A stretch of 64,000 nt of DNA from Clostridiales bacterium (GCA_019418545.1 DYBQ01000003.1:1-64000), one strand, 5' to 3'. Counted from the stretch's first letter, positions 17,070 to 62,907 are shown. Made by a program: numbers and translations. Notes: generated by a model from the sequence alone, not told the origin.

Positions 17070-20000
17070 TTATACCGTTTTTCTGCGCCGTACCAGTGTA
17101 GCTGCTCCCAATACCATAGCAGCAAATATCATGATAATCCACTGCATATTTTGGCTGTTATCTCCAGTAGCGGGGGTTTCAGACTGATTGCCTTCGGCGC
17201 TGTTGTCATCAGTCGGTTTCTGAACGGAACTGTTACCATCATTGTTATCATTCTTGCCATCATCAGGCTTGGAAGTATCACCATTATCGGAAGCATCTCC
17301 GTCATCGTTAGTGCTCAAGTTCTGGATAGCAGCTTTCAGTTCTTCCACAGCCTCATCCACTACTCCCTGGTCATCTTCGCTCAGAGTTTCGTCTGCCAGA
17401 ACTGCCTTGGCATTCTGGAAGGCTGCCGCAAACACTGCAACACTTTCGGCTGTGTATCCGCTCAAATCCATTCCTTCGGCCTTATTTACCAAATCCTCCA
17501 GAATCGACTTGTCTGCCTTAAAACGCTGAGCAAGAATCGCGTTCAGCAATGCTTCTGCTGCCGGCTCTATGTCTTCTTCCATGGCATCGCCGTCATTATA
17601 AATGTCCTTAGCTGCTGCCAGTGCGTCGATAAGCTGCTGCCAGTTATCCTGCACATACTTGTCAGATTCAGCCATCATTTCATCTGCCTTGGCAATCAGC
17701 TGCTCCAGCATGGTCTTGTCGCCCTGGGTCAGTCCCAGGCCCCAGATACCTTTCAGCAGGTTGTCCCATGCCGCATTGACTTCTTCCTGGGTTGCCTTTT
17801 CATTGTCCAGAACTGCCTTTGCCTCTGCCAGGGCATCCTCAAAGAACTTCTTTGCGCTGTCCGTCACACCTTCGGTGCTCAAAGCCAACGCATACTCATA
17901 GGTCTTTTGCAGCAGGGTCTTGTCAACCACATGAACCACCACAGTGGCTTCCAAATTTTGCGGATTACTCAAACCTATTTTTTCGAGCGGGTTCGTGAAT
18001 GTTGCCTTTAAAGTATAGGTTCCAGCTTTATTTGCCTGATAACCGTCATCGTTCCACTGCACAGGCAGAAGATAGGAAGTCCCATCCTCCAAAATAACGG
18101 GAACTCTGCTGGGAAGTTCCAAGGACTCAAATTTTGTTCCGACAGATACAGTTGTTTCTTGTGCTGGAATCTCTGAAACTGTACCTACAGATACTTCTGT
18201 ATCTCCTCCGAACAATTCCAACTCATAAATTCGTGCAATTTTTGTTCCTTGATAAGCTTGTACCGGCTCGGGAATATAAAGTCTAATATATCTTGCTTTA
18301 ATTGTCTGGTCCAATGTACACTCTGTAATAGTTTCCGTATTTCCGGTCACTTCATCAGCCGTTATCCAATCTTCATCATTAGAGCCAGAAGGTGCCTCCA
18401 AATTGGAATACTGCAAAGAGAAATCCATTGTATTTTTGTCCATACCTTCACCGGCAATGTTCGCATGATACACACGCCAGCCAACAATCTCTTTCTCTTC
18501 ACCCAAATCAACAACTGCCCATTGAGGAGTTCCTCTATCCGAACACCATTTGGTTTCAATATTACCATCTGTCAGGCATTCTTTCTGTTCAGTGGGCCAA
18601 TCTGTATGAGAAGATACTTCCACTACTTCTTTATTCAACGCAACATTATTATTGACAGTAATATACCATTTTCCCACTGCCTTACCGTCTACCATAGCTT
18701 TTACCATCGTGCTGCCTTTACTAATAGCAGTCACTGTACCATCCTGGTTTACCATGGCAACAGATGGATTGGAGGATATCCATGTGAGTTCCTCTGGCAA
18801 AGAATCATTATCCAAATCTTTAGTATTTCCCAACACCATGTTGACTTCCTGGATTTCTACAGTAGAATCCGTATCCTCCAGCCAGCCGCCTTCTGCCTCT
18901 GCTACTGCAACAATCTTATCGTACAATTCCTGATATCCATCAGGCGGAGTGCTCATGTTAGAAGAAGAAAGATTATCGGTAAAGGTATTGTCACCCTTGT
19001 TTACCGTACTAGTCTGAGGTGCCCAAATACGGTTCCCTTTCAAAATGGTACCATCCACTTCATCGTCCATATAGAGCGGATAGACCCAACCGTGTCCGGA
19101 TTCAGACTTATAGATAATATTTTCTTCAAACAGGTTTCCAACATCACATCCCCAAGTATACAAGCAACCGCCATCATCGGTTTTCATCATGTATTCTTCG
19201 GTAATATTGTGACGAATTACATTATATCCATCGTGCTTGAATTGTTTTACTTCTTCACGAGTAAAATCGCCGCCATCTGGATGCAGCTGCAATCTAATGG
19301 GGTCTAACTCTTCATAACGGGCGCCATACTGGCCAAAGAAATTACCATAAGAATCCACACCAAAATGACGAGTTCTCTCGGCATCTCCCGGGATAAATCC
19401 GCTCATAACCTGCCAGTTGGTTCCTGCAACAGAAATTGAGGAATAGGGGACATTTTCAATCTTATTGTATTCGATTTCATTGTGGTTACTGCCAAATATA
19501 CTAACAGCACCTGCATGCATATAGGGAGCAAGACCCAAATCAGAAATGTAATTCCGTCTAATTACATTGTGATGGTTAACGTCCAGGGTACCTGCACCAT
19601 ATCCCATCAGTTCAATTCCACCTGCTCCGGTTCCAACAATGCTGTTCCCTACAATTTCGTTATTCTGAGCATAATGGCACAGGGCAATACCATAAGTACC
19701 AGTATTCTTAATTTTGCAGCCTTCAATCACACAGTTTGCAACGCCATCCATATAAATAGCTGCATCGGGATTTTCACTATACCGCTTTACCCAGTCAGAG
19801 GGGAATTCATCTTCCGGAAGACGGTCTGTGTAGGAAAACTCCAAATCTTTGAGGGTAATATACTCAACCTGATTTTCAAAGTTTTCTTCTTCTTTATCTC
19901 CCTGGAATTCCACAATCCGATAGGCCTTAGGAACGATTACCTTTTGTGTTTCCAAGTCCTCGTCTTTGGGCCACAAATAAACTTTGCCATTCTCAGAATC

Positions 20001-21743
20001 TACACACCATTCTCCAGCTTCATCAATATATTTATAAGCATTCATGATGTTATAGGTTCCAGCACTACTGTCAAAAATCGAACCATCCACAAAATAGAGC
20101 GGATTGTACGAATTCATATAGGCAGAATTTTCTTCATAATCAAAGTCTCTCAACACGGGCAATGCATTCCAGAATCCAACTGCCATCAAATTAATCTCAA
20201 TGTCGCCATTGTCGGGCAATCCCTCCAGGCTGTTGTCTCCAAAATAGATTTTATGGCCCTTTTCCGAATCAAATTGGGGATTGACATTATCATTGATAGA
20301 AAGGTCGAATTTAATCCAATTTTTAAAGCTGTCACTATTTACCTGACGAGAAACCTGCTGACGTTCTCCATCAATGTACAAATCATGGAATCTCCAACCT
20401 TTTTCTACATCAGCTACATAAATATGACCTTTGGCTTCTTCGGTAGTATATGGAAGATTTTCATCTGCCTTTTCCCAATTTGTAATCTCCTTACCGCTTG
20501 TAATCACGGCTTCCTCACCAGGATAAGAGGTATATACAATGGGCTTTCCAACTTCACCGCTGTCTTCCGGTGTAAAAGTAATGGATTCATCCTGATAATA
20601 TTCACCGCCGCGCAGATAGACCGTGACACCGCCTTCTGGCAACACTTCCAGCTCACGAATCGTGTCGCGAGCCTTTTGTATCGTGGCAAAAGGTGCTTCC
20701 TCAGTACCGGCATTCTCATCTGAACCGTCAGGAGAGCCATAGTAGAAGGTCTCACACTCTGCAGTTTCATATACCGTTACCGTACAACTATCCGTTTTAG
20801 ATGAATCGGATGCTGATGCTGCTGTAATGGTCGCCGTGCCTGCTGCTACACCAGTTACTGTGCCATTTTCGTCCACAACAGCTACATCCGTATTGTCACT
20901 GCTCCAAATCAAATTTTTGTCCGAAGCAGTGGAGGGGCTTATAGTTGCCAGCAAAAGGATTGTTTCACCTTTTTCTATATTGGCCTCATTTTTGTCCAGT
21001 TCTACTTCTTCTACTGGAATTTTTGTCTCCACACCGATAACTTTTACATTATCCACCGACATATCACATCCGCCGCTCTCAAATCCTATGCCTCCATAGG
21101 AAAGAGCAGGGCCGTTGCTTCCATCATCAACAAAACTAAGTATGGGTTCTCCATACTCTGCTCCCTTTTCCGTAACATAAGCAAAAACGGTCGTTCCAGT
21201 AAAGTCCAGCTTAAGCTGATAAGTTTTCCCGACCTCCAAAGGATACTCCGTTTTGGCAATCGTGTGTCCCGCATTACTATAAAACTTATTCAATTCCAAA
21301 ATCTGGGACTCCCGACGATAATAAAGACCCAGTTTGCTTCCATTTTGAACATGACCCATCAATCCCAGGCAGTCATACTGCTTCATGCCGGCATCTCCAT
21401 GGTCAATCCATTCGTTAATAACAAAGTCAGCTTCTAAAGAATAATCCGTCCATTCAGCCTTGTTTGTATTTAAATAAGCTTTTCCATCCCACGGTACGCC
21501 GCGAATTTGAAACCAGTTATTCCCCTGGTCATCATTTTTAATCGTATATTCTCCTGTTTCAGCAAACTCCCAACCAGAAGGGATTTCTCCGTTCTCAAAA
21601 TCTTCTTCTAATAAAACCGTATTTTCTGTCTGCACACTTTCTTCCGGAACCACTTTGGCTGACCCTATCATTTGCAGTCCGATTACAAGAGCCAGCATTC
21701 CGCTTACAACCTTTTTTACTGTTTTCCCTTTTAACAATGACAA
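17070..21743 (-). CDS. Cell-wall-anchored multidomain beta-helix protein, paralog B (1557 aa)
   Basis: TTG start with RBS AAGGGAGG. Same LamG-Big_2-beta-helix core as A, plus an extra Big_2, an F5/8-type-C discoidin-like domain and an Ig-like domain. FIVAR cassette; PATGD + TM + RRRK sorting signal. Confidence 0.9.
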   Translation of the reverse strand: MSLLKGKTVKKVVSGMLALVIGLQMIGSAKVVPEESVQTENTVLLEEDFENGEIPSGWEFAETGEYTIKNDDQGNNWFQIRGVPWDGKAYLNTNKAEWTDYSLEADFVINEWIDHGDAGMKQYDCLGLMGHVQNGSKLGLYYRRESQILELNKFYSNAGHTIAKTEYPLEVGKTYQLKLDFTGTTVFAYVTEKGAEYGEPILSFVDDGSNGPALSYGGIGFESGGCDMSVDNVKVIGVETKIPVEEVELDKNEANIEKGETILLLATISPSTASDKNLIWSSDNTDVAVVDENGTVTGVAAGTATITAASASDSSKTDSCTVTVYETAECETFYYGSPDGSDENAGTEEAPFATIQKARDTIRELEVLPEGGVTVYLRGGEYYQDESITFTPEDSGEVGKPIVYTSYPGEEAVITSGKEITNWEKADENLPYTTEEAKGHIYVADVEKGWRFHDLYIDGERQQVSRQVNSDSFKNWIKFDLSINDNVNPQFDSEKGHKIYFGDNSLEGLPDNGDIEINLMAVGFWNALPVLRDFDYEENSAYMNSYNPLYFVDGSIFDSSAGTYNIMNAYKYIDEAGEWCVDSENGKVYLWPKDEDLETQKVIVPKAYRIVEFQGDKEEENFENQVEYITLKDLEFSYTDRLPEDEFPSDWVKRYSENPDAAIYMDGVANCVIEGCKIKNTGTYGIALCHYAQNNEIVGNSIVGTGAGGIELMGYGAGTLDVNHHNVIRRNYISDLGLAPYMHAGAVSIFGSNHNEIEYNKIENVPYSSISVAGTNWQVMSGFIPGDAERTRHFGVDSYGNFFGQYGARYEELDPIRLQLHPDGGDFTREEVKQFKHDGYNVIRHNITEEYMMKTDDGGCLYTWGCDVGNLFEENIIYKSESGHGWVYPLYMDDEVDGTILKGNRIWAPQTSTVNKGDNTFTDNLSSSNMSTPPDGYQELYDKIVAVAEAEGGWLEDTDSTVEIQEVNMVLGNTKDLDNDSLPEELTWISSNPSVAMVNQDGTVTAISKGSTMVKAMVDGKAVGKWYITVNNNVALNKEVVEVSSHTDWPTEQKECLTDGNIETKWCSDRGTPQWAVVDLGEEKEIVGWRVYHANIAGEGMDKNTMDFSLQYSNLEAPSGSNDEDWITADEVTGNTETITECTLDQTIKARYIRLYIPEPVQAYQGTKIARIYELELFGGDTEVSVGTVSEIPAQETTVSVGTKFESLELPSRVPVILEDGTSYLLPVQWNDDGYQANKAGTYTLKATFTNPLEKIGLSNPQNLEATVVVHVVDKTLLQKTYEYALALSTEGVTDSAKKFFEDALAEAKAVLDNEKATQEEVNAAWDNLLKGIWGLGLTQGDKTMLEQLIAKADEMMAESDKYVQDNWQQLIDALAAAKDIYNDGDAMEEDIEPAAEALLNAILAQRFKADKSILEDLVNKAEGMDLSGYTAESVAVFAAAFQNAKAVLADETLSEDDQGVVDEAVEELKAAIQNLSTNDDGDASDNGDTSKPDDGKNDNNDGNSSVQKPTDDNSAEGNQSETPATGDNSQNMQWIIMIFAAMVLGAATLVRRRKTV

Positions 21744-21919: not shown

Positions 21920-21968
21920 GTAGAAAAAAACATAAAAATTGGTGCTGAAAGTACAACTTCCAGCACCA
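21920..21968 (-). terminator. Rho-independent terminator of the SPFH gene
   Basis: GGTGCTG...CAGCACC stem followed on the minus strand by AATTTTTATGTTTTTTTC. Confidence 0.7.
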
Positions 21969-22017
21969 ATTGTCTACACAAAATAACCTTTTGCAATATT
22001 AGTAATGTTTCTTATAA

Positions 22018-23118
22018 TCAGCTGTTTCCTTGTAACAGTCCCGCCAACTGTGCCAGCAAATCACCGCTTCCTGAGACTCGGATACTATCTACTTTTTCAC
22101 AAATTCTTTCCAAATACTCTAATTCCTTCAAGCGGTACAGGGTTTTGTTTTCGTCCATCATTTTCGCTGTGTTTAACAAAGAACGGGTAGAGGCGACTTC
22201 TTCTCTTCGGGCAATTACGTTTGCTTGTGCCTTTTTTTCTGCCATAAGCACCATATTCATAATTTGACGGATTTCTCCTGGCAAAATAATATCGCGAATA
22301 CCGGCTTGCGTAAATTTCACAAACATTTCCGCCTCATTTGCCTGTAGCTTTTCGAGCACGATTTTGGACATTTCCTCCCTTCCTTCCAAAATCTCATCCA
22401 AAGTGTGAGCTCCTACATACTCCCGTAAGGCCATCTGAATCATGACGTGAACATACTCTTCATAATCATTGGTACCCGAAAAAGCCCGAACATAATCTGT
22501 TATCCGATATCCACAAACCACGCTGATACGCAGAGCCACTTTATCCCGAGAAAGGATTTCCTGTCCGGTCACCGTGATTTGCTGCAACCGGGTATCTACC
22601 AAGTCCGCACTGACACGTACTGTGTTTTTCCAGAAAAAATAGACGCCGGCATCCAGCAGCCTTACAAATTTTTGGTCGTAATAAAGCCGCGCTTTTTGAT
22701 ACTCTCCCACTTCTAAGCGGGTAAAATAAGCCGTCGGGATTTTGGAAAAAATATATCGCGGCACTTCCTCCGATACTTCTGGCTGAGAAATTTCCACTTT
22801 TTGAAATTCATGCCGGTCATTTCCACTCCAAAAAGCATACTTTCCGGCTGGGAGGATTTCCTGAAATTGCCCATTGACAAAATGCAAAAGTATTTCTTCG
22901 TTTACTGCTTCTGCTGTAACTGTCTGCGCAGCTATTTGTGCATCCTGAAGCAAAACTTCCAGCGGGCAAAATTCAGACTCCAGTTTTTGCGAAGTGGGGA
23001 CAACTTCAATGTTTTTCCTGCTTCCAAAAGTGCGATACTTTCCGGGAGAAAGGAGCTTACGATATCTCCCGTTTTGAAACAAGAGGCCTCTTTCGTTTTC
23101 GTGAATTACTGTTTTCAT
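22018..23118 (-). CDS. SPFH/band-7 (stomatin/prohibitin-like) protein with no N-terminal TM; N-terminal region has three LLxxGKYxFW repeats
   Basis: Band-7 core DKVALRISVVCGYRITDYVRAFSG...GIRDIILPGEIRQIMN...AEKKAQANVIARREE; RBS AGGAGG before ATG 23118. Confidence 0.8.
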   Translation of the reverse strand: MKTVIHENERGLLFQNGRYRKLLSPGKYRTFGSRKNIEVVPTSQKLESEFCPLEVLLQDAQIAAQTVTAEAVNEEILLHFVNGQFQEILPAGKYAFWSGNDRHEFQKVEISQPEVSEEVPRYIFSKIPTAYFTRLEVGEYQKARLYYDQKFVRLLDAGVYFFWKNTVRVSADLVDTRLQQITVTGQEILSRDKVALRISVVCGYRITDYVRAFSGTNDYEEYVHVMIQMALREYVGAHTLDEILEGREEMSKIVLEKLQANEAEMFVKFTQAGIRDIILPGEIRQIMNMVLMAEKKAQANVIARREEVASTRSLLNTAKMMDENKTLYRLKELEYLERICEKVDSIRVSGSGDLLAQLAGLLQGNS

Positions 23119-23530
23119 CTATGTACAACCTCCTGGTAAAGTAGTCGGCATCCAGCCTCCGATGAGCCCGCTGCGGCCAAAAAATTGAGATTCCTTTCCT
23201 CTCAGCGGAAGCCTTGCTCTGGCCGAGAGAAAACAAAACCGGTATCCTTTTTTGGGCAGGGCAGCAAGCCCATTTCTGCCTAAAAGTATTTTCCGGGGAA
23301 TATTCCCCACAAAACACTATCGGCAGTACGTTGGCTGCTATGCTTAGTAAAAATAAATTTTCCGGAGGGGACTTGAACCCCGTCCCTGCATAGCAGGGAT
23401 TGCCACCTTTTACGGCAAAACCTCTTTAGCATACGCTTTGGCACTCCTTGCGCACTATGGTGTACTCCATATACACACAAACAAGACGATTTGCCATCAC
23501 CATTATACCTGTGAAAAACACCTGCATCAC
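23119..23530 (-). promoter_or_regulatory. ~400-nt structured leader upstream of the SPFH gene (possible regulatory RNA)
   Basis: Perfect TATAAT on the minus strand at about 23495-23500. Multiple hairpins, a tRNA T-arm-like GGGGTTCAAGTCCCC, a 14-nt palindrome GGGGAATATTCCCC and a CCGGAAAAT direct repeat. Confidence 0.35.
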
Positions 23531-23578
23531 GGAAAAAAAGTTGCGAACTATGTTTATAGTCCGCAACTTTTTTGTTGT
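23530..23578 (-). terminator. Rho-independent terminator of the WYL gene pair
   Basis: GTTGCGAACT...AGTCCGCAAC stem spanning the WYL-B stop codon, followed by TTTTTTTCC on the minus strand. Confidence 0.75.
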
Positions 23579-24462
23579 TTCAGCCTTTCCCGTATTAAAT
23601 TTACAAACTTTTCAGGGCCAACCACACGTATCATTGGACCAAAGGATAACACCCTGATTACCAATTCCGTTTCGTCCTCACAATCATACTGTATCGTTAC
23701 CCGATACCGGTTTTCTGATATTTTTTCTGCACGTCTTTCAAAATGAGCAAAATGAAACAGCACCCTTTCCAATGCATTGCGCTGGTTTATCACTTCAAGC
23801 TCTACCCAAGAACGTGGAGATGTCCATTGTAAAGAAATCGCTCTCGGTTTCTCCAAAATCCGGCTGCAGGAAATGATTCTTCCAAGATTGAAAATCTGTC
23901 CATATCGATGTCCAGATGCATACAATCGAAATTTATCATCCTTTTCCGAATATTCCAAACGGACAGGAAAACACACCACATCCCGGGAATTTCTTCCATC
24001 CGGTGCATACTGGATTCGCAAAGCTTCCCCTGACTTGGTTGCCTCCAAAATTACACGAAAAATTTGAATATACTGCTCATCTTCAAATGGGTCGCCATCC
24101 CCATACTTATCAAATACCCGATAGTCTTCCGGCATAAACAATGGCTCCACGTTTTCAAGCCCCGAAAAATCTACTTCAAACAGACGAATTCGGGCATCCA
24201 GGCTAATCGCTTTCAACCATTGTTTTTCCAATGTGGTCAACGGCATCGTCGGGGCATGACGCAGCGGCGTATGATATTCTTCATCCAGCAGCTGCCATTC
24301 CTGGTTTTTCAAAGCAGGCAAAATAGTAAACACGCTTTCTGAAAAAGCATACTTTCTAATAATCCTTTCCATTTCCTCTTTACACAGCCCGCCCTCGACT
24401 GCCCGGCGCAAAATTTGTGCTACCGTATAATAATAAATCCCATAGACTTCGTGGAAAAGCAT
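23554..24462 (-). CDS. WYL-domain transcriptional regulator (HTH-WYL-WCX), second of a tandem pair
   Basis: WYL-like motif DKFRLYASGHRYGQIFNLGRI; C-terminal WCX-like IRVLSFGPMIRVVGPEKFVNLI. RBS AAGAGGAGAGGAA overlaps the upstream stop. Confidence 0.7.
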   Translation of the reverse strand: MLFHEVYGIYYYTVAQILRRAVEGGLCKEEMERIIRKYAFSESVFTILPALKNQEWQLLDEEYHTPLRHAPTMPLTTLEKQWLKAISLDARIRLFEVDFSGLENVEPLFMPEDYRVFDKYGDGDPFEDEQYIQIFRVILEATKSGEALRIQYAPDGRNSRDVVCFPVRLEYSEKDDKFRLYASGHRYGQIFNLGRIISCSRILEKPRAISLQWTSPRSWVELEVINQRNALERVLFHFAHFERRAEKISENRYRVTIQYDCEDETELVIRVLSFGPMIRVVGPEKFVNLIRERLKQQKSCGL

Positions 24463-24477
24463 CCGTTCCTCTCCTCT

Positions 24478-25710
24478 TTATTCTATCCCATAGATTTGGT
24501 ACATTTCCTCTAAGTCCTTACGAAACCGTCCTTCTATGGATGGTTGAGAAATATGCAAGTCTGTTATACGACAAATAAAAGTCCGTATCCAAGGAAGCAT
24601 CTCATTTACATCATACACTTTGGCCGAAAAGCGGCAAGTGTTTCTATCAAGCCTTTCTACTGTGCCACAGCGTTTTTCCCGAAGCAGTCTCTGATAAATA
24701 TATTCTTCTCTGTCGGAAAAGTGCACGAGGAAAGAAACTGACTGTAATTTTTCTTCTGGCCTTCGCCCCTGTACTCCCCACATATGTTTTTGCATTTTTT
24801 CCAGCATCTTTCGATACTCATCAAAATCTGCCGATATTCCCCCTGCTTTCACCTGAGAAATCAAATCCAAACGAAAAGCTCTGATATATTTTTTTGAAAG
24901 GTCATATCCCATCAGATACCGTCTTCCCGTCTGGACACTAACGAAAATCCGCAGGGGCACCGCCTGTACACAAATATTTTTCTTCTGCCGGTGGCTATGA
25001 GAAACAAAAGAAACAATTCTCTTATTTCTCATAGCTTGAAACAGGCTGCATAGAATCTCACTTTCCATAGCATGTGTAATATAATGATGCTTAAAAACAA
25101 AAGGGTCCTCTATGTCTTCCAGTTTATCCAACAGATAACTGCCAATTACGCCATCCATTCCGGCTTCTGAAAAAAAGCAGATAGCATCTTTCCAGGAAGA
25201 TAAATCAAAATCTTCCCCGCGCCGATATATTGTCTGTTTTCCCTTTCGCTGAGAGCAGATAATTCCCAAAGTTTCATATTCCTTCAGCTTTTTACGAATG
25301 GTAGACTCATCAAATATTCTGGGATTATGAAAATGGGACAAATATTCCTTATCCATAATTTCCATAATGCTACCCAGAGATTTTTCTTCGTCAGCTGTAT
25401 TCAAAATATCCAGAAGGATAAAATGCAGGGTAATATCACCGGAGGTAAAACTGCGGGCTTTCAGTGCCTGATACAAAGGGTTATGCCGGACACGTCTGCT
25501 GTCAATGGAAAGGAAAACATTTTTCCCATGATTCCCCTGGCGGAAAAACATGTATTCTCCTACATAACTTTCAATCCTTCTTCGTTCGTTATCATAAGAG
25601 CGCGGGCTTTTTTGATGGTATTCATTTCGGCTTTTAAAGCCATATATATAAAACTCATTCATATAATCCCGAATACGCTCGAAATTTTTAATCAGCTCCG
25701 AATATGCCAT
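24478..25710 (-). CDS. WYL-domain transcriptional regulator (HTH-WYL-WCX), first of a tandem pair
   Basis: WYL motif GRRYLMGYDLSKKYIRAFRLDLI; C-terminal WCX-like segment. ATG 25710 with RBS GAGGTG; the track start 25719 is GTG. Confidence 0.7.
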   Translation of the reverse strand: MAYSELIKNFERIRDYMNEFYIYGFKSRNEYHQKSPRSYDNERRRIESYVGEYMFFRQGNHGKNVFLSIDSRRVRHNPLYQALKARSFTSGDITLHFILLDILNTADEEKSLGSIMEIMDKEYLSHFHNPRIFDESTIRKKLKEYETLGIICSQRKGKQTIYRRGEDFDLSSWKDAICFFSEAGMDGVIGSYLLDKLEDIEDPFVFKHHYITHAMESEILCSLFQAMRNKRIVSFVSHSHRQKKNICVQAVPLRIFVSVQTGRRYLMGYDLSKKYIRAFRLDLISQVKAGGISADFDEYRKMLEKMQKHMWGVQGRRPEEKLQSVSFLVHFSDREEYIYQRLLREKRCGTVERLDRNTCRFSAKVYDVNEMLPWIRTFICRITDLHISQPSIEGRFRKDLEEMYQIYGIE

Positions 25711-25751
25711 TGTGCGCACCTCATATTTTCGTGCCGATAGCCCCTATGGTA

Positions 25752-28076
25752 TCAAGTTTCTTCTTCATCTCTCTTAGAAAATTCGCGCGGTGTACAATGA
25801 TAGGCCTTTTTGAATAATTTATAGAAATAGGTACTGTTTTCAATACCGATTTCCTTGATAATCTGATTAACCGTATAGTCTGTATTCTGCAGCAAGGTAG
25901 CCGCTTTGCTCATTCTCAGGTTTACGATATATTCATTGAGAGAAAGCCCTGTACTTTCTTTAAACTTATGCATAATATACCGAGGCGAAAGTGCAAGAGA
26001 ATCTCCTATCATTTGGGAAGAGAGATTCACATCACTATAATGAGCTTGCACAAAAGCAATTACCGCACTAATCAGACTATCTTTAGCATTTTCTTCCGCT
26101 TCTTTTTCTGTATCCAAAATTGAAGTAATATACTGCTTTAGCTGTTCTATTGCTTCTTCCAGGGTCTCTGATTGGGCAGCTTTTTGATAAATAGCATTAA
26201 AATTAATATTGGATAATATTCTTTGTTCCCGTATCATTTCGTTAAATATCATATTAATTTGCGTAATCAACGCCATCATACAGGTAGTAGCGCTGCGATA
26301 TTGGAAGGTAGAAATGATATTGGAAATTTCTTCAATTGCCACCAAAGTACTATTCAAATTCTTGGTTTGAATTGCTGATTTAAGCTTCACATCCAACTCA
26401 TATGAATAGTGGCTCTGCTGATTATTTAAATTAAACCGACAGGTCTCATGATACAAAATTTCTCCCAACCCGAACAGATACCGATACTGTAAATATTCAC
26501 GGGCTTCTTTCAGTAAGTCTGTCAGGCTATGGCGGTTAACCGAATAGTTGCTCAATGAAACGGTTAGTGTTAAATCCAGATGCTCCAATATTAAATTCTG
26601 ACATTCCTTAATCAGTGGAATGAGGGAATCTTCCAATGCCTCTCCCTCTGTGTATCCTGTGAGCACACACAAAGTATCCGTACTCATAAAAAAGCAGGAG
26701 TAGGCACGCTTTTCTGATATTTTTTCATGAATGATATTTTCAACAGCATAGGTCATTAACTGAATATCAGATTTATCAAAATGCGTGTTGCCTGTAATAT
26801 CTTCGATTTTAAACAGGATAATTCCAACTGGGATATTGCTAATCAACCAGTGTGATGGGTTATGTTTTTTAAACTGCTCCAAACGCTCCGGGGTACTGTC
26901 CATAACCATTTGTGACAATTCATATTTCATAACCATAGGTTCATGTTCCTGCTTGGCTTTTTGAAGCAGCTGATTTTGCCGCCAAGTAGTACGATAGGCC
27001 TCCCGGAGATAATCAAATTCATTCTGATATTTTTCCGACTCCGATTTTGATTCCCCGAGTCCAGAAATAGAGGTAACAAATTCTTGTACAGGAGAATAAA
27101 GCTGTTTCGACACCAACACCAGCATCAGTAATGCAAGGAATCCAAATCCCATACTGATATACAGCATATCGTTTTTCAATTGTATTAAGTCTTCAAAAAT
27201 ATAATCGTATTCCTGTATCAGCACAACCGCATTGCTTTGATTATTTAAATGAATACCAGAGACAATATATGTTTTCCCATCATATTTTGTCTGATAGGTA
27301 AAAATACCATCTTCGTTCTCCGCTTCCAGATGATTCCAATAGTCTTTTACCAAATACTGATGAGCTTTTGAAACAGTATTGGCCTCTGTCTCATAAATTT
27401 CGCCTAACTGATTACTCAAATAAATATTTCCATGAATTTTATCTTTTTCGGTTTGCGCGCTAATATTCTCTATAAACCAGTTTACGTTTTCGTTTACCAC
27501 TACATAGCCTTCTGTCCCTTTTGTTGGGTCATTAAATTCATACATAAAGTAGGAAAATACGTAGTATGATTTTTCTGAGCCATTGATGGTATGCGTCACT
27601 TTTCGAAGAATGGGCTGCAAACAAGGAATAGAATCCTGACTTTCGACAAAATTTGCCAAGTCGTCCGGGTCAAAGGTACTTGCAGATTCCGTCGAAAAAT
27701 ACTGGTCGTTATTTGCATTATAAATGGTAATAGAGTCAATAGACGGATAAACCATAAGGGATGTATCATGAATTTGCTGCATATAGGTAATTGCATCATA
27801 ATAATCCATGATATCCGTATACATAACCGTTTTTGTTTTATTATCCATAAATACTTCCATACATAAATTGGAAGTGACCGAACTGAAGTAAGTCATGTTT
27901 GCCTGTATTTGATTTAAAATACTTGTATTGGAAGAAGTGATACTGGACATAATCTTTTGATTGGACAAATGGTAGAGTAATAGAGAAAAAGGAATTTGCA
28001 ATACAACAACGAAAAGCACCAAAAATATCCAAATTTTTTTATAGTACTCTCTTCCGTGCAGTTTCTTGAATATCAT
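25752..28076 (-). CDS. Membrane-anchored AraC-family one-component regulator (TM, extracytoplasmic sensor domain, TM, cytoplasmic AraC HTH)
   Basis: Two TM segments flank a ~270-aa extracytoplasmic domain. C-terminal AraC HTH signature ...SPRYIMHKFKESTGLSLNEYIVNLRMSKAATLL...YFYKLFKKAYHCTPREF. Confidence 0.8.
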   Translation of the reverse strand: MIFKKLHGREYYKKIWIFLVLFVVVLQIPFSLLLYHLSNQKIMSSITSSNTSILNQIQANMTYFSSVTSNLCMEVFMDNKTKTVMYTDIMDYYDAITYMQQIHDTSLMVYPSIDSITIYNANNDQYFSTESASTFDPDDLANFVESQDSIPCLQPILRKVTHTINGSEKSYYVFSYFMYEFNDPTKGTEGYVVVNENVNWFIENISAQTEKDKIHGNIYLSNQLGEIYETEANTVSKAHQYLVKDYWNHLEAENEDGIFTYQTKYDGKTYIVSGIHLNNQSNAVVLIQEYDYIFEDLIQLKNDMLYISMGFGFLALLMLVLVSKQLYSPVQEFVTSISGLGESKSESEKYQNEFDYLREAYRTTWRQNQLLQKAKQEHEPMVMKYELSQMVMDSTPERLEQFKKHNPSHWLISNIPVGIILFKIEDITGNTHFDKSDIQLMTYAVENIIHEKISEKRAYSCFFMSTDTLCVLTGYTEGEALEDSLIPLIKECQNLILEHLDLTLTVSLSNYSVNRHSLTDLLKEAREYLQYRYLFGLGEILYHETCRFNLNNQQSHYSYELDVKLKSAIQTKNLNSTLVAIEEISNIISTFQYRSATTCMMALITQINMIFNEMIREQRILSNINFNAIYQKAAQSETLEEAIEQLKQYITSILDTEKEAEENAKDSLISAVIAFVQAHYSDVNLSSQMIGDSLALSPRYIMHKFKESTGLSLNEYIVNLRMSKAATLLQNTDYTVNQIIKEIGIENSTYFYKLFKKAYHCTPREFSKRDEEET

Positions 28077-28240
28077 CAATGAATCGCTCCCTTATCTATT
28101 ATCACTTTCTGCGCCGGTATTTCCCTTTCACTGTATATTCAAAATACTTTTCTGCATGGAAAACAGGAATTTTAAACCGAAAAACTCAGAAACAACTTAC
28201 TAATTTTTATTTATTATATCATTTTTTACCTGTTTTCTCA

Positions 28241-28315: not shown

Positions 28316-31300
28316 TTAACCCTCAGTATATTTGCGACGAAAAACGAAAACAACTGCAAAACCAAACATTAATCCAGTAAACATTAATAACAAATCTGTA
28401 TTGCTGTCTCCTGTTTCTGGTATCTGGGAATTATTATTTTCATCGGTGGGACTATTCGAAGAAGTTTCATTTCCAGAAGTACCATTGTCCGGCTTGCTGG
28501 CGTTATTATCTCCCTTACCATCATCAGTATCGGGCTTACCAGTATCGGCACTCAGATTTTCAATGGCATTTTTCAGCTCAGTTACGGCCTCATCTACCAC
28601 AGCCTGGTTATTTTCGCTCAGTGTTTCATCTGCCAACACCAGATTTGCATTGTACAGAGCAGCGCGGAATACTGCCACACTTTCTGCTGTATAACCGCTC
28701 AAATCCATTCCTTCTGCCTTGTTAACCAGCTCTTCCAGAATCGATTTGTCCGCCTTAAACCGCTGGGCCAAAATTGCATTCAGCAGAGCTTCTGTTGCCG
28801 GCTGTACATCTTCTTCCATAGCGTCGCCGTCTGCCATCACTTTTTTGGCCTCAGCCAGGGCATCCACCAGCAGCTGCCAATTGTCCTGCACATACTTGTC
28901 CTGGTTAGGAATCATAGCCTCTGCCTTAGCAATCAGCTGTTCAAACAAAGTCTTGTCGCCTTGTACAAGTCCCAGACCCCAAATGCCATCAAGCAGATTG
29001 TCCCATGCAGTATTGACTTCTTCCTGAGTTGCCTTAGCGTCATCCAAAACGGCCTTGGCTTCTGCTACTGCTTTTTCAAAGTATGATTTTGCGCTATCCG
29101 TCACACCTTCTGTGCTCAGGGTCAAGGCATAGTCATAGGTTTTCTGCAGCAGGGTTTTATTGGGAGCCACATACTCTTCCAGACCTGCAATCGCATCATT
29201 CAGAGCCTTTACAGCTGCATCTACTTCTTCCTGGGTAGCTTCTGCATTATCGTTTACTTCATTTGCTTTTTCCAGCGCATCCGCAAATACTGCCCAACTA
29301 GCCTTGGTGTAATCAGCTTCTTCATACTGCGCTGCTTCTGCAATTGCATTTTCCAACGCAGTTTTGTCAGCAGCAGGAACGGCAGCTACTACACGGACAT
29401 TGTCTACTTCTGCATATTCACGGCCAAAACCAATACCGATACCACCTGTGGCACGCATCTGGTCAGTTTCAAACTCATAAATCAGCTCAGAATCAATAAA
29501 GTAACGCACACGATTTCCAAGGTGTTCTACGCGGCAATGATAGGTTTTTCCAGTCTCTACCACAAATGGGCTTCCTGTAGCAAAAGTAGTCCAGTTATTT
29601 CCTTTTCCCATCACAGCTTCCACTATGCCACTTTTTCTCATTGCCAACTGATTAAATTGACGAGGATTCAAACCAGTTCTGGATACCAGACCAATAGCAG
29701 AATACTCTTCAGCCCCATCCTGATAACCTGTGATGGTAATATCAGCTTCAAAGGCGTAGTCAGACCAATCAGCAGTATCATTGTTAACAAAGAATTCCTG
29801 CCAGCTGCCATCGTATTTCATTACACCGTTTTCGGTTTTTACTTCGCCTCCCTGCGGGCTGACCCACAGTTCGCTTGCACCATTATCAAAGTTATCCTCA
29901 AACAGGACTTCTACTTTTCTTGTGGTAACGGCAACAGGCTCACTGGCTTCTCCTTCACCTTTCTGGTTAGATGCGCTTACCTTATATTCATAGGTTTTTT
30001 CCGCAGCTACATTTTCATCGAGATAAGAGGCCGAATCAATATTTTCAGCTATTTTTTCAAAGGTATCTGTGCCTGCTTCCCGGCGATATACGGTATAGGT
30101 ATAATGATATCCTTCTTCCCAGGAAATCATGACTGCATCATAATCGTTTTCCAGCTTGATTTCTGTGGGAGCTTCGGGTACAGTTTCTTCTTTGGTAGTG
30201 ATTACAAAAATTTCGCTCTGGCTGTTTGCACCTGCCTGTCCCAAAGCAGAAACTCTCCAGTAATAAGTTTTGCCATAATCCAGTTCTACATCATCTATCC
30301 GAGTTTTTGTAGTTTCCTGGCTTACCAGAATATCTGTAAATTCAGCATCAGAGGCAATTTCCAATTGATATTTCGCTGCATTTTCAGAAGCATTCCAAGA
30401 AAAGTCTACAACAGGAGCCAAGTCTTTTGCATTATTTTCGGGAGAAGAAAGTACCGGTACGCCCAGAGGAGCGGTTTTAAAACCACCGACTGCTTCTTCT
30501 GCCTGATTCATAATGGACTGATACAACTCGTCATAGCCAGCGGGCTTATCAGGCCAACCATACTGGTTATCAATATAGGGGTTGTCACCCTTATTCAGTT
30601 CTGCCTGGTCAATTGCCCAAATACGGTTTCCTTCTACAGTTGCTCCATCAGTATAGTCGTCCATATACAACGGCCACAGCATATGACGTCCCTTTACTGA
30701 CTTATGCATGACATTAAAGCTGAAGCTGTTGCCCAAGCCAGGATACCAAGCATACAAGCATCCGCCATCATTCATATCCGTCATATACTCTTCGATGATA
30801 TTGTATTCTACTACATTATTGACCGAGTGCTGATATTCCTTGCAGTCCCAGCGGCCAAAGTCTTTTCCGCCCAGCTCGTCCCAACGGATGTTATATTGAC
30901 GGTGTTTATCGCCAAAAGTATCATACGATGCACGGGTATCAGGGGTAGAAGCCGACATACTGTTATGGTCTGTTCCCATAATACTAAACGCTGTATATGG
31001 AACATTGGTAATATAGTTATAGGTCAACGTGTTATAACCACTTCCAAACACACTAACAGCCGGGGAATGAAGATAAGGTGCCCGTCCGGTATCATGGATA
31101 TTGTTATACATAACGGTATTATGGTGGTTTACATCAGTAGTGCCTACACCATATCCATTAATCTGGACGCCGCCGCATCCTAAATCGCCCAATTCGTTTC
31201 CGATAATATTATTATTCTGTGCGTAATGGTCCAGTGTTACCGCATAGGTTCCCGAATGACGCAGAGTACAATCAGTAATTGTACAATTTGCTGTTCCCTG

Positions 31301-33223
31301 GAAATAAACCATAGCATCGGGGTTTTCGGCATTTCTTACCAGCCAGTCATCTCCAAACTGGTTTTCGGGAACACGGTCGGAATATTCAATGGTCAAGCCA
31401 CTGAGAGTAATATATTCTACCTGTTTTTCCCAATTCTGCTCTTCTTCGTCTCCTTGGAAGCGAATCAATTCATACGGTTTTGGAGCAATCATTCGGCTGT
31501 CTTCAGGATTGCCGTTTTCCGGCCAGTAATACACTTTGCCTGCTTTACTGTCGACACACCATTCACCAGGTTCATCGATAAATTTCAGTGCATTCAGGAT
31601 TTGGTAGTAACCATAATCATTATCACCAAAAGTGGCAGGGTTCATAGATTGCAGATAGACTGTATTAGACTCTTCATCAATTTCCGTCACAACCGGCAAA
31701 TAGTTCCAGTAAACTACTGGCATCAGATTAAGTTCAATGTCCTCGCTGCCATTGAGTCCATCCAGCATACCGTCCTGGAAGGTTGCCAAAATTCCCTTTT
31801 CTTTGTCAGGAGCTGCACGGTGAACCATCGTCGGCCACTGTCCCCAGTCATTGGTATTGGTACTGCGGGAAACTTGCAGCCGCTTTCCATCGGCATACAA
31901 ATCGTGGAAACGCCATCCGGCTTCTACATCTGCAACATACAGGTTTCCTTTTGCAGCATCAGAAACATTTTCCAAATTTTCATCTGCAAGCTGCCATCCG
32001 GTAATTTCCTGTCCGCCGGTAATCACTGCTGTCTCTCCAGGATAAGAAGCATACACGATAGGTTTATCCCGTTCGCCGCTGTCTTCTGGCGTAAAGGTTA
32101 GGGTTTCTCCCTGATAATATTCGCCTTCCCGCAGATAAACCGTCACACCACCCTGCGGCAAAACCTCCAGATTGCGGATTGCATTGCGGGCAGCCTGAAT
32201 CGTTTGGAAAGGAGATTCCTCTGTTCCGGGGTTCTCATCATTTCCGTTGGGAGAAACATAGTAGAAGGTAGTACACTCGGGCACTTCATAGACTTCTACC
32301 TGACACTGGGCGCTGACTTCAGGAGCGGATGCAGATGTAACGGTAATCACAGTAGTACCTGCTGCAACAGCCGTTACTATGCCTTCGTCGCTCACTTGTG
32401 CCACATTGGAATCAGCACTTTCCCACACCAAAGATTTATCAGAAGCATTTTCCGGTGTAACAGATGCAGAAAGCGATGCTGTTTTCCCTGCTTCCAAAGA
32501 CATTTCACTTTGGCTGAGGGTGATTGTCTCCACAGGAATCTGATGCTCAATTCCCGTCACCTTAAAGTTATCAACCCAAAAATCTCCATACACACCTTCA
32601 ATGGAAACGCCGCCAAAGGTAAGGCTTGGACTTTCGGTATCTGTGTATGTAATGACAGGTTCTGTAAATTCCTGTCCTTTTTCCGCAAAATATGCCCGGA
32701 TTACATTACCGTCAAAATCCAGCTTCATATGATAGTCTTTCCCAGTATCCAATGTAAAGGGCACTTCCATAATTGGATGACCCCATCCATCATAGAATTT
32801 ATTCAGTTCCAACACTCCACGTTTCCGGTAATACAAACCCCATCGGTCTTTGCTGGCGGAGCAGCGTCCGGAAATGCCAATGCTGTCATATTGTCCGTTA
32901 TATTCCGAAGGCTCAATCCAATGGTTAATCCGAAAATCCATTTCGATTGAGTAATCAGTCCACTCTGCTTTTCCCAAATTCAAATAAGCAGATGGCCAAT
33001 CACCTGTAACATTCCAAACTTTATTTCCTGTACCATCATCTACAATCTGCTCAGACAAATCAATATCCCAACCTTCCTGGACATCACCATCAAAGGTTTC
33101 ATAAAACAGAACATTGTCTTCCTCTGCTTCAGCTGTAGGTTCTGCTAAAACAGGAATCGCTGTCTGCACCAGCAAAACACCTGCGAGCAGCAGGCTTCCC
33201 AGTGCTTTTTTCCAGGATTTCAT
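28316..33223 (-). CDS. Cell-wall-anchored multidomain beta-helix protein, paralog C (1635 aa)
   Basis: Signal peptide; LamG/DUF1080; Big_2; beta-helix; two FN3-like domains; a second LamG/DUF1080-like domain; three FIVAR-like repeats; diverged copy of the C-terminal cassette; PETGD + TM + RRKYTEG sorting signal. Confidence 0.9.
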   Translation of the reverse strand: MKSWKKALGSLLLAGVLLVQTAIPVLAEPTAEAEEDNVLFYETFDGDVQEGWDIDLSEQIVDDGTGNKVWNVTGDWPSAYLNLGKAEWTDYSIEMDFRINHWIEPSEYNGQYDSIGISGRCSASKDRWGLYYRKRGVLELNKFYDGWGHPIMEVPFTLDTGKDYHMKLDFDGNVIRAYFAEKGQEFTEPVITYTDTESPSLTFGGVSIEGVYGDFWVDNFKVTGIEHQIPVETITLSQSEMSLEAGKTASLSASVTPENASDKSLVWESADSNVAQVSDEGIVTAVAAGTTVITVTSASAPEVSAQCQVEVYEVPECTTFYYVSPNGNDENPGTEESPFQTIQAARNAIRNLEVLPQGGVTVYLREGEYYQGETLTFTPEDSGERDKPIVYASYPGETAVITGGQEITGWQLADENLENVSDAAKGNLYVADVEAGWRFHDLYADGKRLQVSRSTNTNDWGQWPTMVHRAAPDKEKGILATFQDGMLDGLNGSEDIELNLMPVVYWNYLPVVTEIDEESNTVYLQSMNPATFGDNDYGYYQILNALKFIDEPGEWCVDSKAGKVYYWPENGNPEDSRMIAPKPYELIRFQGDEEEQNWEKQVEYITLSGLTIEYSDRVPENQFGDDWLVRNAENPDAMVYFQGTANCTITDCTLRHSGTYAVTLDHYAQNNNIIGNELGDLGCGGVQINGYGVGTTDVNHHNTVMYNNIHDTGRAPYLHSPAVSVFGSGYNTLTYNYITNVPYTAFSIMGTDHNSMSASTPDTRASYDTFGDKHRQYNIRWDELGGKDFGRWDCKEYQHSVNNVVEYNIIEEYMTDMNDGGCLYAWYPGLGNSFSFNVMHKSVKGRHMLWPLYMDDYTDGATVEGNRIWAIDQAELNKGDNPYIDNQYGWPDKPAGYDELYQSIMNQAEEAVGGFKTAPLGVPVLSSPENNAKDLAPVVDFSWNASENAAKYQLEIASDAEFTDILVSQETTKTRIDDVELDYGKTYYWRVSALGQAGANSQSEIFVITTKEETVPEAPTEIKLENDYDAVMISWEEGYHYTYTVYRREAGTDTFEKIAENIDSASYLDENVAAEKTYEYKVSASNQKGEGEASEPVAVTTRKVEVLFEDNFDNGASELWVSPQGGEVKTENGVMKYDGSWQEFFVNNDTADWSDYAFEADITITGYQDGAEEYSAIGLVSRTGLNPRQFNQLAMRKSGIVEAVMGKGNNWTTFATGSPFVVETGKTYHCRVEHLGNRVRYFIDSELIYEFETDQMRATGGIGIGFGREYAEVDNVRVVAAVPAADKTALENAIAEAAQYEEADYTKASWAVFADALEKANEVNDNAEATQEEVDAAVKALNDAIAGLEEYVAPNKTLLQKTYDYALTLSTEGVTDSAKSYFEKAVAEAKAVLDDAKATQEEVNTAWDNLLDGIWGLGLVQGDKTLFEQLIAKAEAMIPNQDKYVQDNWQLLVDALAEAKKVMADGDAMEEDVQPATEALLNAILAQRFKADKSILEELVNKAEGMDLSGYTAESVAVFRAALYNANLVLADETLSENNQAVVDEAVTELKNAIENLSADTGKPDTDDGKGDNNASKPDNGTSGNETSSNSPTDENNNSQIPETGDSNTDLLLMFTGLMFGFAVVFVFRRKYTEG

Positions 33224-62614: not shown

Positions 62615-62907
62615 CACAATTCCCCGGCTTCTGCTATTCCAATGTTTTTTGAAACAAAAAACGACCACCCGATTGGGTGGCCGCTTTATGTTGGCATCTT
62701 TCTATCGTCCCGGGCCGTCGCCAGCCAAGTATTTTCGACATCAACGAGCTTAACTTCTGTGTTCGGGATGGGAACAGGTGGACCCTCGTTATCATCGACA
62801 CCAACTATTTTGTTTTCCGTCTTTCCTGACGGTTTTATAATGATAACACGTTTTCCTGTAAAAATCAAGGGGTTTTTGCGAATTTTTTAATTTTTTTTGA
62901 ATCGCCT

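Follow-up and report, generated by a model that had tools for sequence, protein, structure and literature searches.

Which genes does a tandem pair of WYL-domain regulators control, and to what signal might it respond? The question is raised by 64,000 nucleotides (nt) of DNA from a Clostridiales bacterium (GCA_019418545.1, DYBQ01000003.1:1-64000), referred to as the window, meaning the whole stretch at its full length. Successive open reading frames (ORFs) on its minus strand encode an AraC-type protein, WYL-A, WYL-B and, after a 435-nt gap, an SPFH/Band-7 protein, where "WYL-A" designates gene 1 of the pair and "WYL-B" gene 2. To our knowledge, RNA-repair operons are mechanistically understood only in Proteobacteria, where RtcR senses damaged tRNA. 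We propose that the pair is a PafBC/DriD-like nucleic-acid-sensing regulator that activates an RNA-repair operon and is the Clostridial counterpart of RtcR, a reading that we consider probable, with modest confidence. An initial annotation had described the pair as a PafBC-like arrangement of helix-turn-helix (HTH)-WYL-WCX regulators lying between surface-enzyme genes, possibly as an inserted stress- or phage-responsive module.

24478..25710, minus strand: WYL-A gene, 410 amino acids (aa), with its ATG at 25710 and its stop at 24478-24480
24463..24480, minus strand: WYL-A/WYL-B junction, the TAA of WYL-A and then AGAGGAGAGG, the ribosome-binding site of WYL-B
23554..24462, minus strand: WYL-B gene, 302 aa

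WYL-A and WYL-B as one unit

Both ORFs lie on the minus strand where the initial annotation had placed them, and the WYL motifs that it quoted are present in both. An upstream in-frame GTG at 25719 is an alternative start for WYL-A; the ATG at 25710 is likelier, because a GAGGTG ribosome-binding site precedes it. The gap between the ORFs is 15 nt and the TAA of WYL-A directly abuts AGAGGAGAGG, while at another locus (L005) the two ORFs overlap by one base. The junction is consistent with translational coupling, as the annotation had it.

Relatives of each protein number in the thousands, with uniform lengths (∼412 and ∼303 aa) and 50-60% identity, in Clostridia. A scan using one genome per species gave at least 551 loci that encode a relative. 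The pair is carried by hundreds of gut Clostridia. Hosts of the family are Clostridia, Treponema and Enterococcus, and cultured carriers of the system include Robinsoniella peoriensis, Ruthenibacterium lactatiformans, Hominibacterium faecale and Anaerofilum hominis. Eighty loci were fetched, 78 of which had enough flanking sequence to judge adjacency, and WYL-A was found directly upstream of WYL-B in all of them (78/78). Single-chain fusions of the two accounted for 7 of the best 150 representatives matched by the N-terminal domain of WYL-A; these proteins are 728-855 aa long, have differing linkers, and contain both partners complete. When two fusions were compared, their C-terminal halves aligned with WYL-B at 3e-58 and 4e-50.

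Protein fusions are a classical sign of two proteins acting in one complex. Together, the strict adjacency and the natural fusions therefore point to joint action of WYL-A and WYL-B as a heteromer. Recent paralogy of the two was ruled out by profile-profile alignment (hhalign), which gave E=0.018 and a probability of 2.6%, in the WYL region only. Their similarity is remote and therefore suggests two specialised subunits, not a recent duplication. Thus the PafBC-like pairing stands as a two-gene arrangement with constant adjacency and fusions, and fails as a pair of close paralogs.

Domain composition of the two proteins

25426..25710, minus strand: N-terminal extension of WYL-A, aa 1-95, nearly invariant in the family alignment
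24847..25056, minus strand: WYL domain of WYL-A (GRRYLMGY...FRLDLI), PF13280, matched by 24/24 family members

From its N-terminus, WYL-A consists of a ∼95-aa extension, a putative winged helix (∼aa 96-165), the WYL domain (aa 219-288) and, at ∼aa 320-406, a WCX-like region. The extension is the most conserved part of the protein in the family alignment, and no Pfam or NCBIfam model matches it. A search of 1.8 billion representatives with this domain matched 678 representatives of 50%-identity clusters, and in nearly all of the best 150 of the 678 matches listed the domain is at the N-terminus. The WYL domain scored 31.3 bits against Pfam WYL (PF13280; cut-off 21.8, E=2e-7) and 1.3e-13 against the PADLOC WYL profile. 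WCX was matched weakly, by 6/24 family members; the C-terminal half of the AlphaFold2 model superposes on the C-domain of DriD with a TM score of 0.65-0.73, normalised to the target. The model as a whole has a predicted local distance difference test (pLDDT) score of 68, with low confidence in the N-terminal 93 aa. In Foldseek searches it matched DriD (8tp8) at 1.3e-10 and PafBC (9fnd) at 1.9e-10, and a profile search of PDB sequences matched the PafB/C WYL region (E=0.004).

Several signals of a winged helix were obtained in WYL-A. The model has the secondary-structure pattern at aa 91-164, aa 131-187 resemble an ArsR/SmtB-type winged HTH (E ∼0.1, profile against PDB sequences), the family gave weak profile matches to PaaX, Penicillinase_R and Forkhead, and the model matched the MecI/BlaI/LmrR folds at E ∼0.02 (Foldseek). 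The segment STIRKKLKEY would be a basic recognition segment resembling that of ArsR/SmtB repressors. These signals suggest, at the level of fold or weak profile and for WYL-A only, a winged helix that lies behind the 95-aa extension.

WYL-B consists of a three-helix N-terminal domain, a WYL domain (aa 134-196) that holds the invariant motif EYSEKDDKFR, and a WCX domain (∼aa 217-299). As a single sequence it falls just under the Pfam cut-off for WYL (20.9 bits; cut-off 21.8) and under that for WCX (PF25583, 22.1 bits; cut-off 23.9). It scored 1.7e-13 against the PADLOC WYL profile, and within its family WCX was matched in 21/24 members (best 6e-8) and WYL in 13/24. The model (pLDDT 80.8) matched DriD at 3e-8 and PafBC at 1e-7. 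Its N-terminus is modelled as three helices plus a loop with few basic residues, and no HTH profile matched WYL-B as a single sequence or as a 24-member family. This domain is possibly a degenerate winged helix.

Neither protein had an NCBIfam match. Both models matched the full-length HTH-WYL-WCX regulators DriD, PafBC, CapW and BrxR over 300-360 columns (Foldseek E 1e-10 to 1e-7), and the best of these matches were to the activators DriD and PafBC, entries of their complexes with RNA polymerase among them. By sequence profile and model, WYL-A and WYL-B are assigned to the HTH-WYL-WCX class ("class A" of Mueller et al. 2019), with both WYL and WCX identified. The class proposed by the initial annotation is therefore retained for WYL (PF13280) and WCX, which were recovered by profiles, families and folds; a match to the HTH_11 profile is absent.

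RNA-repair genes downstream of the pair

22018..23118, minus strand: SPFH/Band-7 gene, 366 aa; Band_7 (PF01145), 106.6 bits, aa 148-307
21937..21971, minus strand: terminator-like hairpin directly after SPFH, 16 bp plus a T run, which ends the operon

Genes downstream of the pair were counted, using Pfam assignments, at the 59 loci whose flank extends for 3 kb or more. A gene for SPFH/Band-7, a Ro-like DUF2828-vWA protein, the RNA ligase RtcB or the nucleotidyltransferase RlaP lay downstream on the same strand at 57/59 loci, distributed as follows.

SPFH then RtcB, with or without RlaP: 26 loci of 59
SPFH alone (the window's type): 11 loci of 59
SPFH plus RlaP: 2 loci of 59
Ro/TROVE-like DUF2828-DUF7788(vWA) protein, with or without RtcB and RlaP: 14 loci of 59
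RtcB, with or without RlaP: 4 loci of 59
None of SPFH, Ro-like, RtcB or RlaP: 2 loci of 59

SPFH homologs, 51-86% identical, follow the pair at 39/59 loci, and RtcB comes after SPFH at 26/39 of these. The WYL-WYL-SPFH triad that the initial annotation suggested looking for in other genomes is thus recurrent. No evident hydrophobic (transmembrane) stretch was seen in the SPFH protein when its sequence was read by eye. In its 140-aa N-terminal extension (aa 1-140; window 22700-23118, minus strand), the initial beta-hairpin of the SPFH fold seems to recur two or three times (ERGLLFQNGRYRKLLSPGKY / LLHFVNGQFQEILPAGKY / ARLYYDQKFVRLLDAGVY).

This association agrees with published predictions. Burroughs & Aravind 2016, as cited in bioRxiv 10.1101/312249, place a Band-7 protein and a predicted tRNA-like RNA beside RtcB and, as cited there and elsewhere, describe systems of Ro/TROVE or SPFH/Band-7 scaffolds, cognate Y RNAs or a "Band-7-associated tRNA", RtcB and RlaP. 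CARF and WYL transcription factors have been predicted to sense cyclic-ended RNA, some of them regulating RNA repair (PMC9503650; PMC7824862). In P. aeruginosa, an SPFH gene lies within the RtcR-controlled rtc locus (PMC13086221).

Outside Clostridia, members of the family have other neighbours. A pair with 34% identity, and without the Clostridial motif described below, is carried by an Enterococcus raffinosus megaplasmid (L091; NZ_CP081847.1, 114-6948). It is arranged head-to-head with Hen1-Pnkp-RlaP, a different RNA-repair system, and is followed by an IS30 transposase. On plasmid pTS1 of the spirochaete Treponema saccharophilum (L090, 4727-9245), the next genes lie 560 nt beyond the pair and are a diguanylate cyclase gene and hypothetical genes; this is one of the few exceptions to the RNA-repair association. 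At a Eubacteriales locus (L005), a 115-aa Cys-rich DUF326 protein is encoded after RtcB (15252-15599), and a 91-aa gene call between WYL-B and SPFH overlaps the structured RNA and is probably spurious.

A conserved motif shared by a terminator and a predicted promoter

23534..23573, minus strand: inverted repeat, the predicted intrinsic terminator of the WYL operon; 18 bp, -24.8 kcal/mol, z=-6.2, then a run of seven T (T7)
23556-23573: terminator 5' arm, the last WYL-B codons (QKSCGL plus stop)
23534-23551: terminator 3' arm, with T7 at 23533-23539
23528..23549, minus strand: signature motif AGTTCGCAACTTTTTTTCCGTG, found once in the window, 0 expected
23502..23530, minus strand: predicted sigma-A-type promoter, with -35-like GTGATG at 23525-23530, a 17-nt spacer and -10 TATAAT at 23502-23507

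WYL-B is followed by a near-invariant motif, in short form AGTTCGCARCTTTTTTTCCGTGAT-N18-TAnAAT. Its core, GTTCGCANNTTTTTTTCC, was present exactly once, on the gene strand, in 76/87 loci. The 69-locus consensus is AGTTCGCAgCTTTTTTTCCGTGATAa-N17-tggTAnAAT (core ...CCGTGATA-N17), in a fixed register and with no length variation. In promoter terms, the consensus comprises a -35-like GTGATA, a 17-nt spacer and a -10 element that is often TG-extended. Transcription is predicted to start near 23495, and in most relatives a conserved UUGCAAGG-type sequence forms the 5' end of the predicted transcript.

The terminator shares its 3' arm with this motif, whose initial 17 nt are paired with the end of WYL-B. 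The codons concerned are CAA AAA AGY TGC GGA CTN (QKSCGL). In 56/69 loci, at least 15 of the 17 hairpin pairs can form, and changes in one arm are compensated in the other (AGT/ACT, AGC/GCT, ATGTGC/GCACAT); the Ser codon AGY covaries with R in GCARCT. At the penultimate position, some loci encode Gly (GGA) and others Glu (GAA), a radical change for the protein, and both codons pair with the same U. From this alignment, the last WYL-B codons are read as dual-coded, serving also as the 5' arm of the terminator.

The motif also exists without the hairpin. In L078, L086 and L053 its sequence, the CCGTGAT extension and the TAnAAT register are kept although the partner arm is missing. At L088 the motif and -10 box lie upstream of WYL-A on the opposite strand, facing DUF2828-RtcB-RlaP and lacking a hairpin partner, and WYL-B ends there in an unrelated peptide (...ARGFSQ). 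Because L088 keeps motif and -10 box without the hairpin, the motif would belong to a regulated promoter and not merely to a terminator. We propose that it comprises an operator plus the UP/-35 region of this promoter, secondarily used to terminate the regulator's own transcript. A check for autoregulation found neither the operator motif nor half-sites upstream of WYL-A, where the sequences are unrelated among loci.

A structured RNA upstream of SPFH

23119..23495, minus strand: structured leader or noncoding RNA of ∼380 nt upstream of SPFH, conserved over its whole length in 37 loci
23431..23455, minus strand: conserved 5' hairpin (GUGCRC...GYGUAU), covarying helices 1-2; pair 74-92 is AU (n=17) or GC (n=15)
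23358..23419, minus strand: tRNA-like module with a weak acceptor-like stem, an anticodon-like hairpin and a T-arm, GGGGUUCAAGUCCCC, at 23367-23381
23154..23281, minus strand: 3' domain of ∼130 nt, four stacked helices forming an extended hairpin

The interval between the predicted start and SPFH encodes a covarying structured RNA. RNAalifold, run with 32 sequences, gave 50 pairs, 40 of them with compensatory changes. Paired cells amounted to 90.3%, compared with 71.5% in column shuffles and 35-50% with slid partners; the covariation score was 0.544, compared with 0.208 for shuffles and 0.09-0.15 for slid partners, and 0/500 shuffles reached the observed value. The variable region of the 5' half, which has one or two T-arm modules, was misaligned by MAFFT, and the alignment of the window's T-arm depended on the run. 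We therefore report only helices that show covariation.

Neither in the window nor in 10 SPFH-type loci did any Rfam family reach its gathering score in the leader, and a search with E up to 10 gave a mascRNA-like match and noise only. That match, to the mascRNA-menRNA model, is the best for the tRNA-like module (30.5 bits, E=3e-4) and lies below the gathering score of 42.5. The T-arm pairs of the module covary and its T-loop is canonical. The T-loop pattern GGTTCRANTCC occurs 150-230 nt after WYL-B in most SPFH loci, many of which have two modules. The window's module was not called as a tRNA by ARAGORN or by the Rfam tRNA model. With default settings, ARAGORN called nothing in the window and 39 gaps except one tRNA-His-like sequence (L062), and relaxed settings gave inconsistent results. 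The L062 call was rejected, its acceptor stem being in conflict with a covarying hairpin.

The 3' domain contains 37 pairs, 33 with compensatory changes, and the conserved internal loops GGAUACCG, CCAAAAG, CUUUCCGC, CUYAA and GCCGC. A covariance model of it (R1) scored 100.3 bits in the window (E=2.5e-23). R1 gave 49 matches, one per locus, with SPFH seen in 47/49 and 17 loci lying outside the training set; the two loci without a visible SPFH are short contigs that end first. There were no R1 matches in Ro-like or RtcB-only loci. In L072 and L080 the 3' domain adjoins SPFH even though it is far from the WYL genes. Since R1 tracks SPFH and the domain stays beside SPFH in these two loci, we take the RNA to be associated with SPFH. 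It probably extends the predicted Band-7-associated tRNA.

Other RNAs were seen at related loci. In Ro-like loci, one to four tRNA-like genes in tandem follow the conserved promoter; the Rfam tRNA model accepts them at 33-59 bits (L017 10526-10841; L061 9178-9523; L088 5792-5864, minus strand; L089 9932-9994; L057 9515-9586; L027 8087-8157). Transcripts of these loci start with a shared GCRCAGACAGCAA-like sequence, and L088 has an ACAGCAA motif about every 100 nt. Four loci (L055, L060, L074 and L084, at ∼8220-9050) have ∼650 nt of extra sequence between the RNA 3' domain and SPFH.

The terminator, leader, SPFH gene and AraC-type gene that the initial annotation gave as flanks are all real. 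Its account of the terminator and leader missed the structured tRNA-like RNA, the promoter/operator motif and the link to RtcB-type RNA-repair operons.

Proposed mechanism and alternatives

In the mechanism that we favour, WYL-A and WYL-B would form one heteromeric, ligand-sensing HTH-WYL-WCX transcription factor, made from its own variable promoter on a transcript that would end at the hairpin terminator. The terminator 3' arm, T7 and CCGTGAT would constitute the operator/-35 region of the next promoter, to which the WYL-A winged helix would bind. This promoter would drive an RNA-repair module, which in the window would consist of the ∼380-nt RNA and a soluble SPFH protein and to which most relatives add RtcB, with or without RlaP. 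The ligand of the WYL domains may be a product of nucleic-acid damage; cleaved RNA is the likeliest candidate, for example in the form of tRNA fragments or 2',3'-cyclic-phosphate ends. The ligand would then switch the complex into an activator positioned just upstream of the -35 element, as in DriD and PafBC, if the sign of regulation is also theirs. A more specific version is tentative: the pair may be a dedicated RNA-damage sensor with an RNA ligand, its asymmetric operator co-opted as a terminator arm, and the ∼380-nt RNA may represent a hitherto undescribed class, built of tRNA-like modules and the 130-nt domain, that serves with a soluble SPFH ring as scaffold or decoy in RNA repair, even where a ligase is missing.

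Several observations weigh against an activator of RNA repair. The similarity of the two subunits is as remote as stated above, and no significant HTH profile, HTH_11 or other, was obtained with either protein as single sequence or as 24-member family. The N-terminal domain of WYL-B may not be DNA-binding. Solved WYL regulators with known ligands bind single-stranded DNA, not RNA, according to the titles of entries 8tp8 and 9c5g. No RtcB was found by tblastn in the 64-kb window, so that any RNA-repair function here would lie with SPFH and the RNA alone. Conservation of the motif is partly explained by its pairing with conserved codons, that is, by the terminator role. The CGL/CEL ending of WYL-B persists in several loci where the motif has moved 100-640 nt away, and the conserved C-terminus is only partly supported as a pure by-product of the hairpin. 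The -35-like GTGATA and extended -10 look fairly good alone, and such a promoter could be constitutive and repressed. No experimental work on family members was found in the searchable literature.

Repression is the main rival because the promoter elements look fairly competent alone. The same complex, operator and operon would be involved, with the complex occluding the UP/-35 region until released by ligand, as for CapW and BrxR. An activator is perhaps unneeded where, as in many loci, four of six -35 positions match, the spacer is 17 nt and the -10 is TGn-extended; CapW and BrxR are also close in structure to both models. The Aravind group calls many WYL transcription factors negative regulators (PMC9503650). 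Against this, the conserved block spans ∼-33 to -54, away from the -10 and +1 positions where repressors usually act, and the best folds are those of the activators DriD and PafBC, RNA-polymerase complexes among them. We regard repression as possible but somewhat unlikely.

If the motif were only the terminator of the WYL operon, kept constant by a conserved C-terminal peptide, the pair would regulate or bind elsewhere. The hairpin is indeed strong, its arms covary and a T7 run follows it, and the persistence of CGL/CEL in loci with a displaced motif fits such a view. It does not account for the loci (L078, L086, L053 and L088) that keep the motif, CCGTGAT and the TAnAAT register without the partner arm, nor do terminator stems normally show sequence conservation across species whose proteins are ∼50% identical. 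The Gly/Glu alternation, moreover, argues that the codons obey a nucleic-acid constraint. A role as terminator only is therefore improbable.

WYL domains can reportedly bind RNA in the Cas13d accessory protein WYL1, and the pair might by analogy comprise RNA-binding accessory subunits of the repair machinery and not transcription factors. They would then bind damaged RNA or the tRNA-like RNA themselves. Such a role would suit the missing HTH profile and genes that travel with RNA-repair genes and RNAs; entry 6oaw ("CRISPR Cas-related protein") is among the fold matches. The full-length folds nevertheless align with DNA-binding HTH-WYL-WCX regulators, WYL-A has the basic segment STIRKKLKEY, a conserved DNA motif of a size suited to a protein is found at the promoter in every architecture, and a terminator separates the pair from the repair genes, as expected of a regulator. 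We give this explanation very little weight.

Least probable of all, and close to dismissal, is the wider idea of the initial annotation, an inserted module that responds to stress or phage; it would control the AraC gene, the surface-enzyme genes or a locus for phage defence. Defence loci are indeed under BrxR or CapW control, and the window's pair does lie between an AraC-type gene and giant surface proteins, but upstream neighbours differ by species and RNA-repair genes are the only constant partners, PADLOC finds generic WYL models only, and the motif is essentially absent from viral contigs.

The regulator of RNA repair proposed here offers a compact and testable system, with a two-subunit WYL sensor, a putative 25-bp operator, a defined promoter, a strongly covarying RNA and cultured carriers. 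With it one could learn whether WYL domains respond to RNA damage in addition to single-stranded DNA. It would also contribute a large candidate structured RNA not represented in Rfam, and would give a function-level label to thousands of proteins that are unnamed or named only "WYL domain-containing protein".

Neighbouring genes and carriage

25752-28079, minus strand: AraC-type gene with an N-terminal membrane/sensor part; HTH_18, 66 bits
12602-16948, minus strand: giant surface protein
17070-21743, minus strand: giant surface protein
28316-33223, minus strand: giant surface protein
62689-62805, minus strand: 5S rRNA gene, 79 bits

The AraC-family protein is 775 aa long with an N-terminal transmembrane/sensor part, and its gene ends 41 nt before WYL-A. 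In the window, one transcript may cover this gene and the WYL pair; other species do not share the adjacency. Upstream of WYL-A, neither a shared motif nor a constant neighbour was found; each species has different genes there. We therefore judge the AraC and surface-enzyme surroundings of the pair in the window to be incidental, with nothing to tie the pair to these genes.

The giant surface proteins that flank the module are three paralogs, 1448-1635 aa long. They are composed of a signal peptide, Big_2, a Pel9A-like/GH141 beta-helix, F5/8 type C or CBM6/35 domains, FIVAR repeats and a C-terminal membrane anchor, and their C-terminal FIVAR regions are nearly identical among the three. The 5S rRNA gene is the sole Rfam match at gathering score in the window, and no tRNA or tmRNA gene was found in the 64 kb.

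Carriage on mobile elements was considered and rejected. The signature motif occurs in just 2 of 2.9 million viral contigs, which together with the generic PADLOC matches leaves nothing to link the pair to phage defence, and plasmid carriage was limited to large non-mobilizable replicons.

Comparison with known systems

BrxR and CapW, repressors of BREX, CBASS and other defence islands, share the HTH-WYL-WCX fold with the pair. They are single-gene homodimers beside defence genes, whereas the WYL pair comprises two genes, has a candidate operator upstream of the -35 element and lies beside no defence genes, PADLOC having returned at this locus generic WYL matches and weak Avs5-like noise for SPFH only.

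DriD of Caulobacter is reportedly a single-gene homodimer that uses a palindromic box just upstream of the -35 element of its target promoter. Of all structures, it matches both models best; its ligand is single-stranded DNA (title of 8tp8). The WYL pair differs in having two different subunits and a candidate operator that keeps its sequence without a symmetric partner.

PafBC, the heterodimeric DNA-damage activator of mycobacteria and Arthrobacter, resembles the pair in its two adjacent WYL and WCX genes, in the joint action that is probable for WYL-A and WYL-B, and in an asymmetric motif beside the -10 box, which for the pair is the putative target; the folds match at E 1e-10 to 1e-7, and a natural fusion from Arthrobacter (6sj9) mirrors the WYL-A/WYL-B fusions. 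The subunits of PafBC are close homologs, unlike WYL-A and WYL-B, and WYL-A adds a 95-aa N-terminal domain. PafBC belongs to Actinobacteria, with proteasome/Pup linkage and the RecA-NDp motif; the WYL pair belongs to Clostridia, Treponema and Enterococcus, with motif AGTTCGCARCTTTTTTTCCGTGAT in the Clostridial loci and no Pup linkage. PafBC is linked to DNA repair, the WYL pair to RNA-repair genes.

RtcR (rsr-yrlBA-rtcBA or rtcBA) is, like the pair in the reading proposed here, a ligand-sensing regulator beside an RtcB operon that may also include a tRNA-like RNA and a scaffold (Ro60 or SPFH). It consists of CARF and AAA+ domains and works with sigma-54, whereas the pair consists of WYL and WCX domains and has a predicted sigma-A-type promoter. 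The two are unrelated and the analogy is functional only.

In the Band-7/SPFH-RtcB system, SPFH is preceded by a tRNA-like RNA and is usually followed by RtcB, with RlaP in some cases; the loci described here show this order with a putatively tRNA-like RNA. In the window, SPFH is present, RtcB is absent and a terminator follows SPFH. The Band-7-associated tRNA, as cited, strongly resembles a real tRNA, while the RNA found here is ∼380 nt long and comprises one or two degenerate modules plus the 130-nt 3' domain.

Control of RNA repair by WYL factors (PMC9503650) and the Band-7/tRNA-like/RtcB system (10.1101/312249) are already predicted in print. Compared with Burroughs & Aravind 2016, as others cite that paper, four elements appear to be new: a defined sensor, encoded by two genes or as a fusion and bearing an additional N-terminal domain; the candidate operator/promoter that overlaps the terminator and last codons; how far the SPFH-associated RNA extends and how it is structured; and one regulator family serving SPFH, Ro-like, RtcB-only and Pnkp/Hen1 operons.

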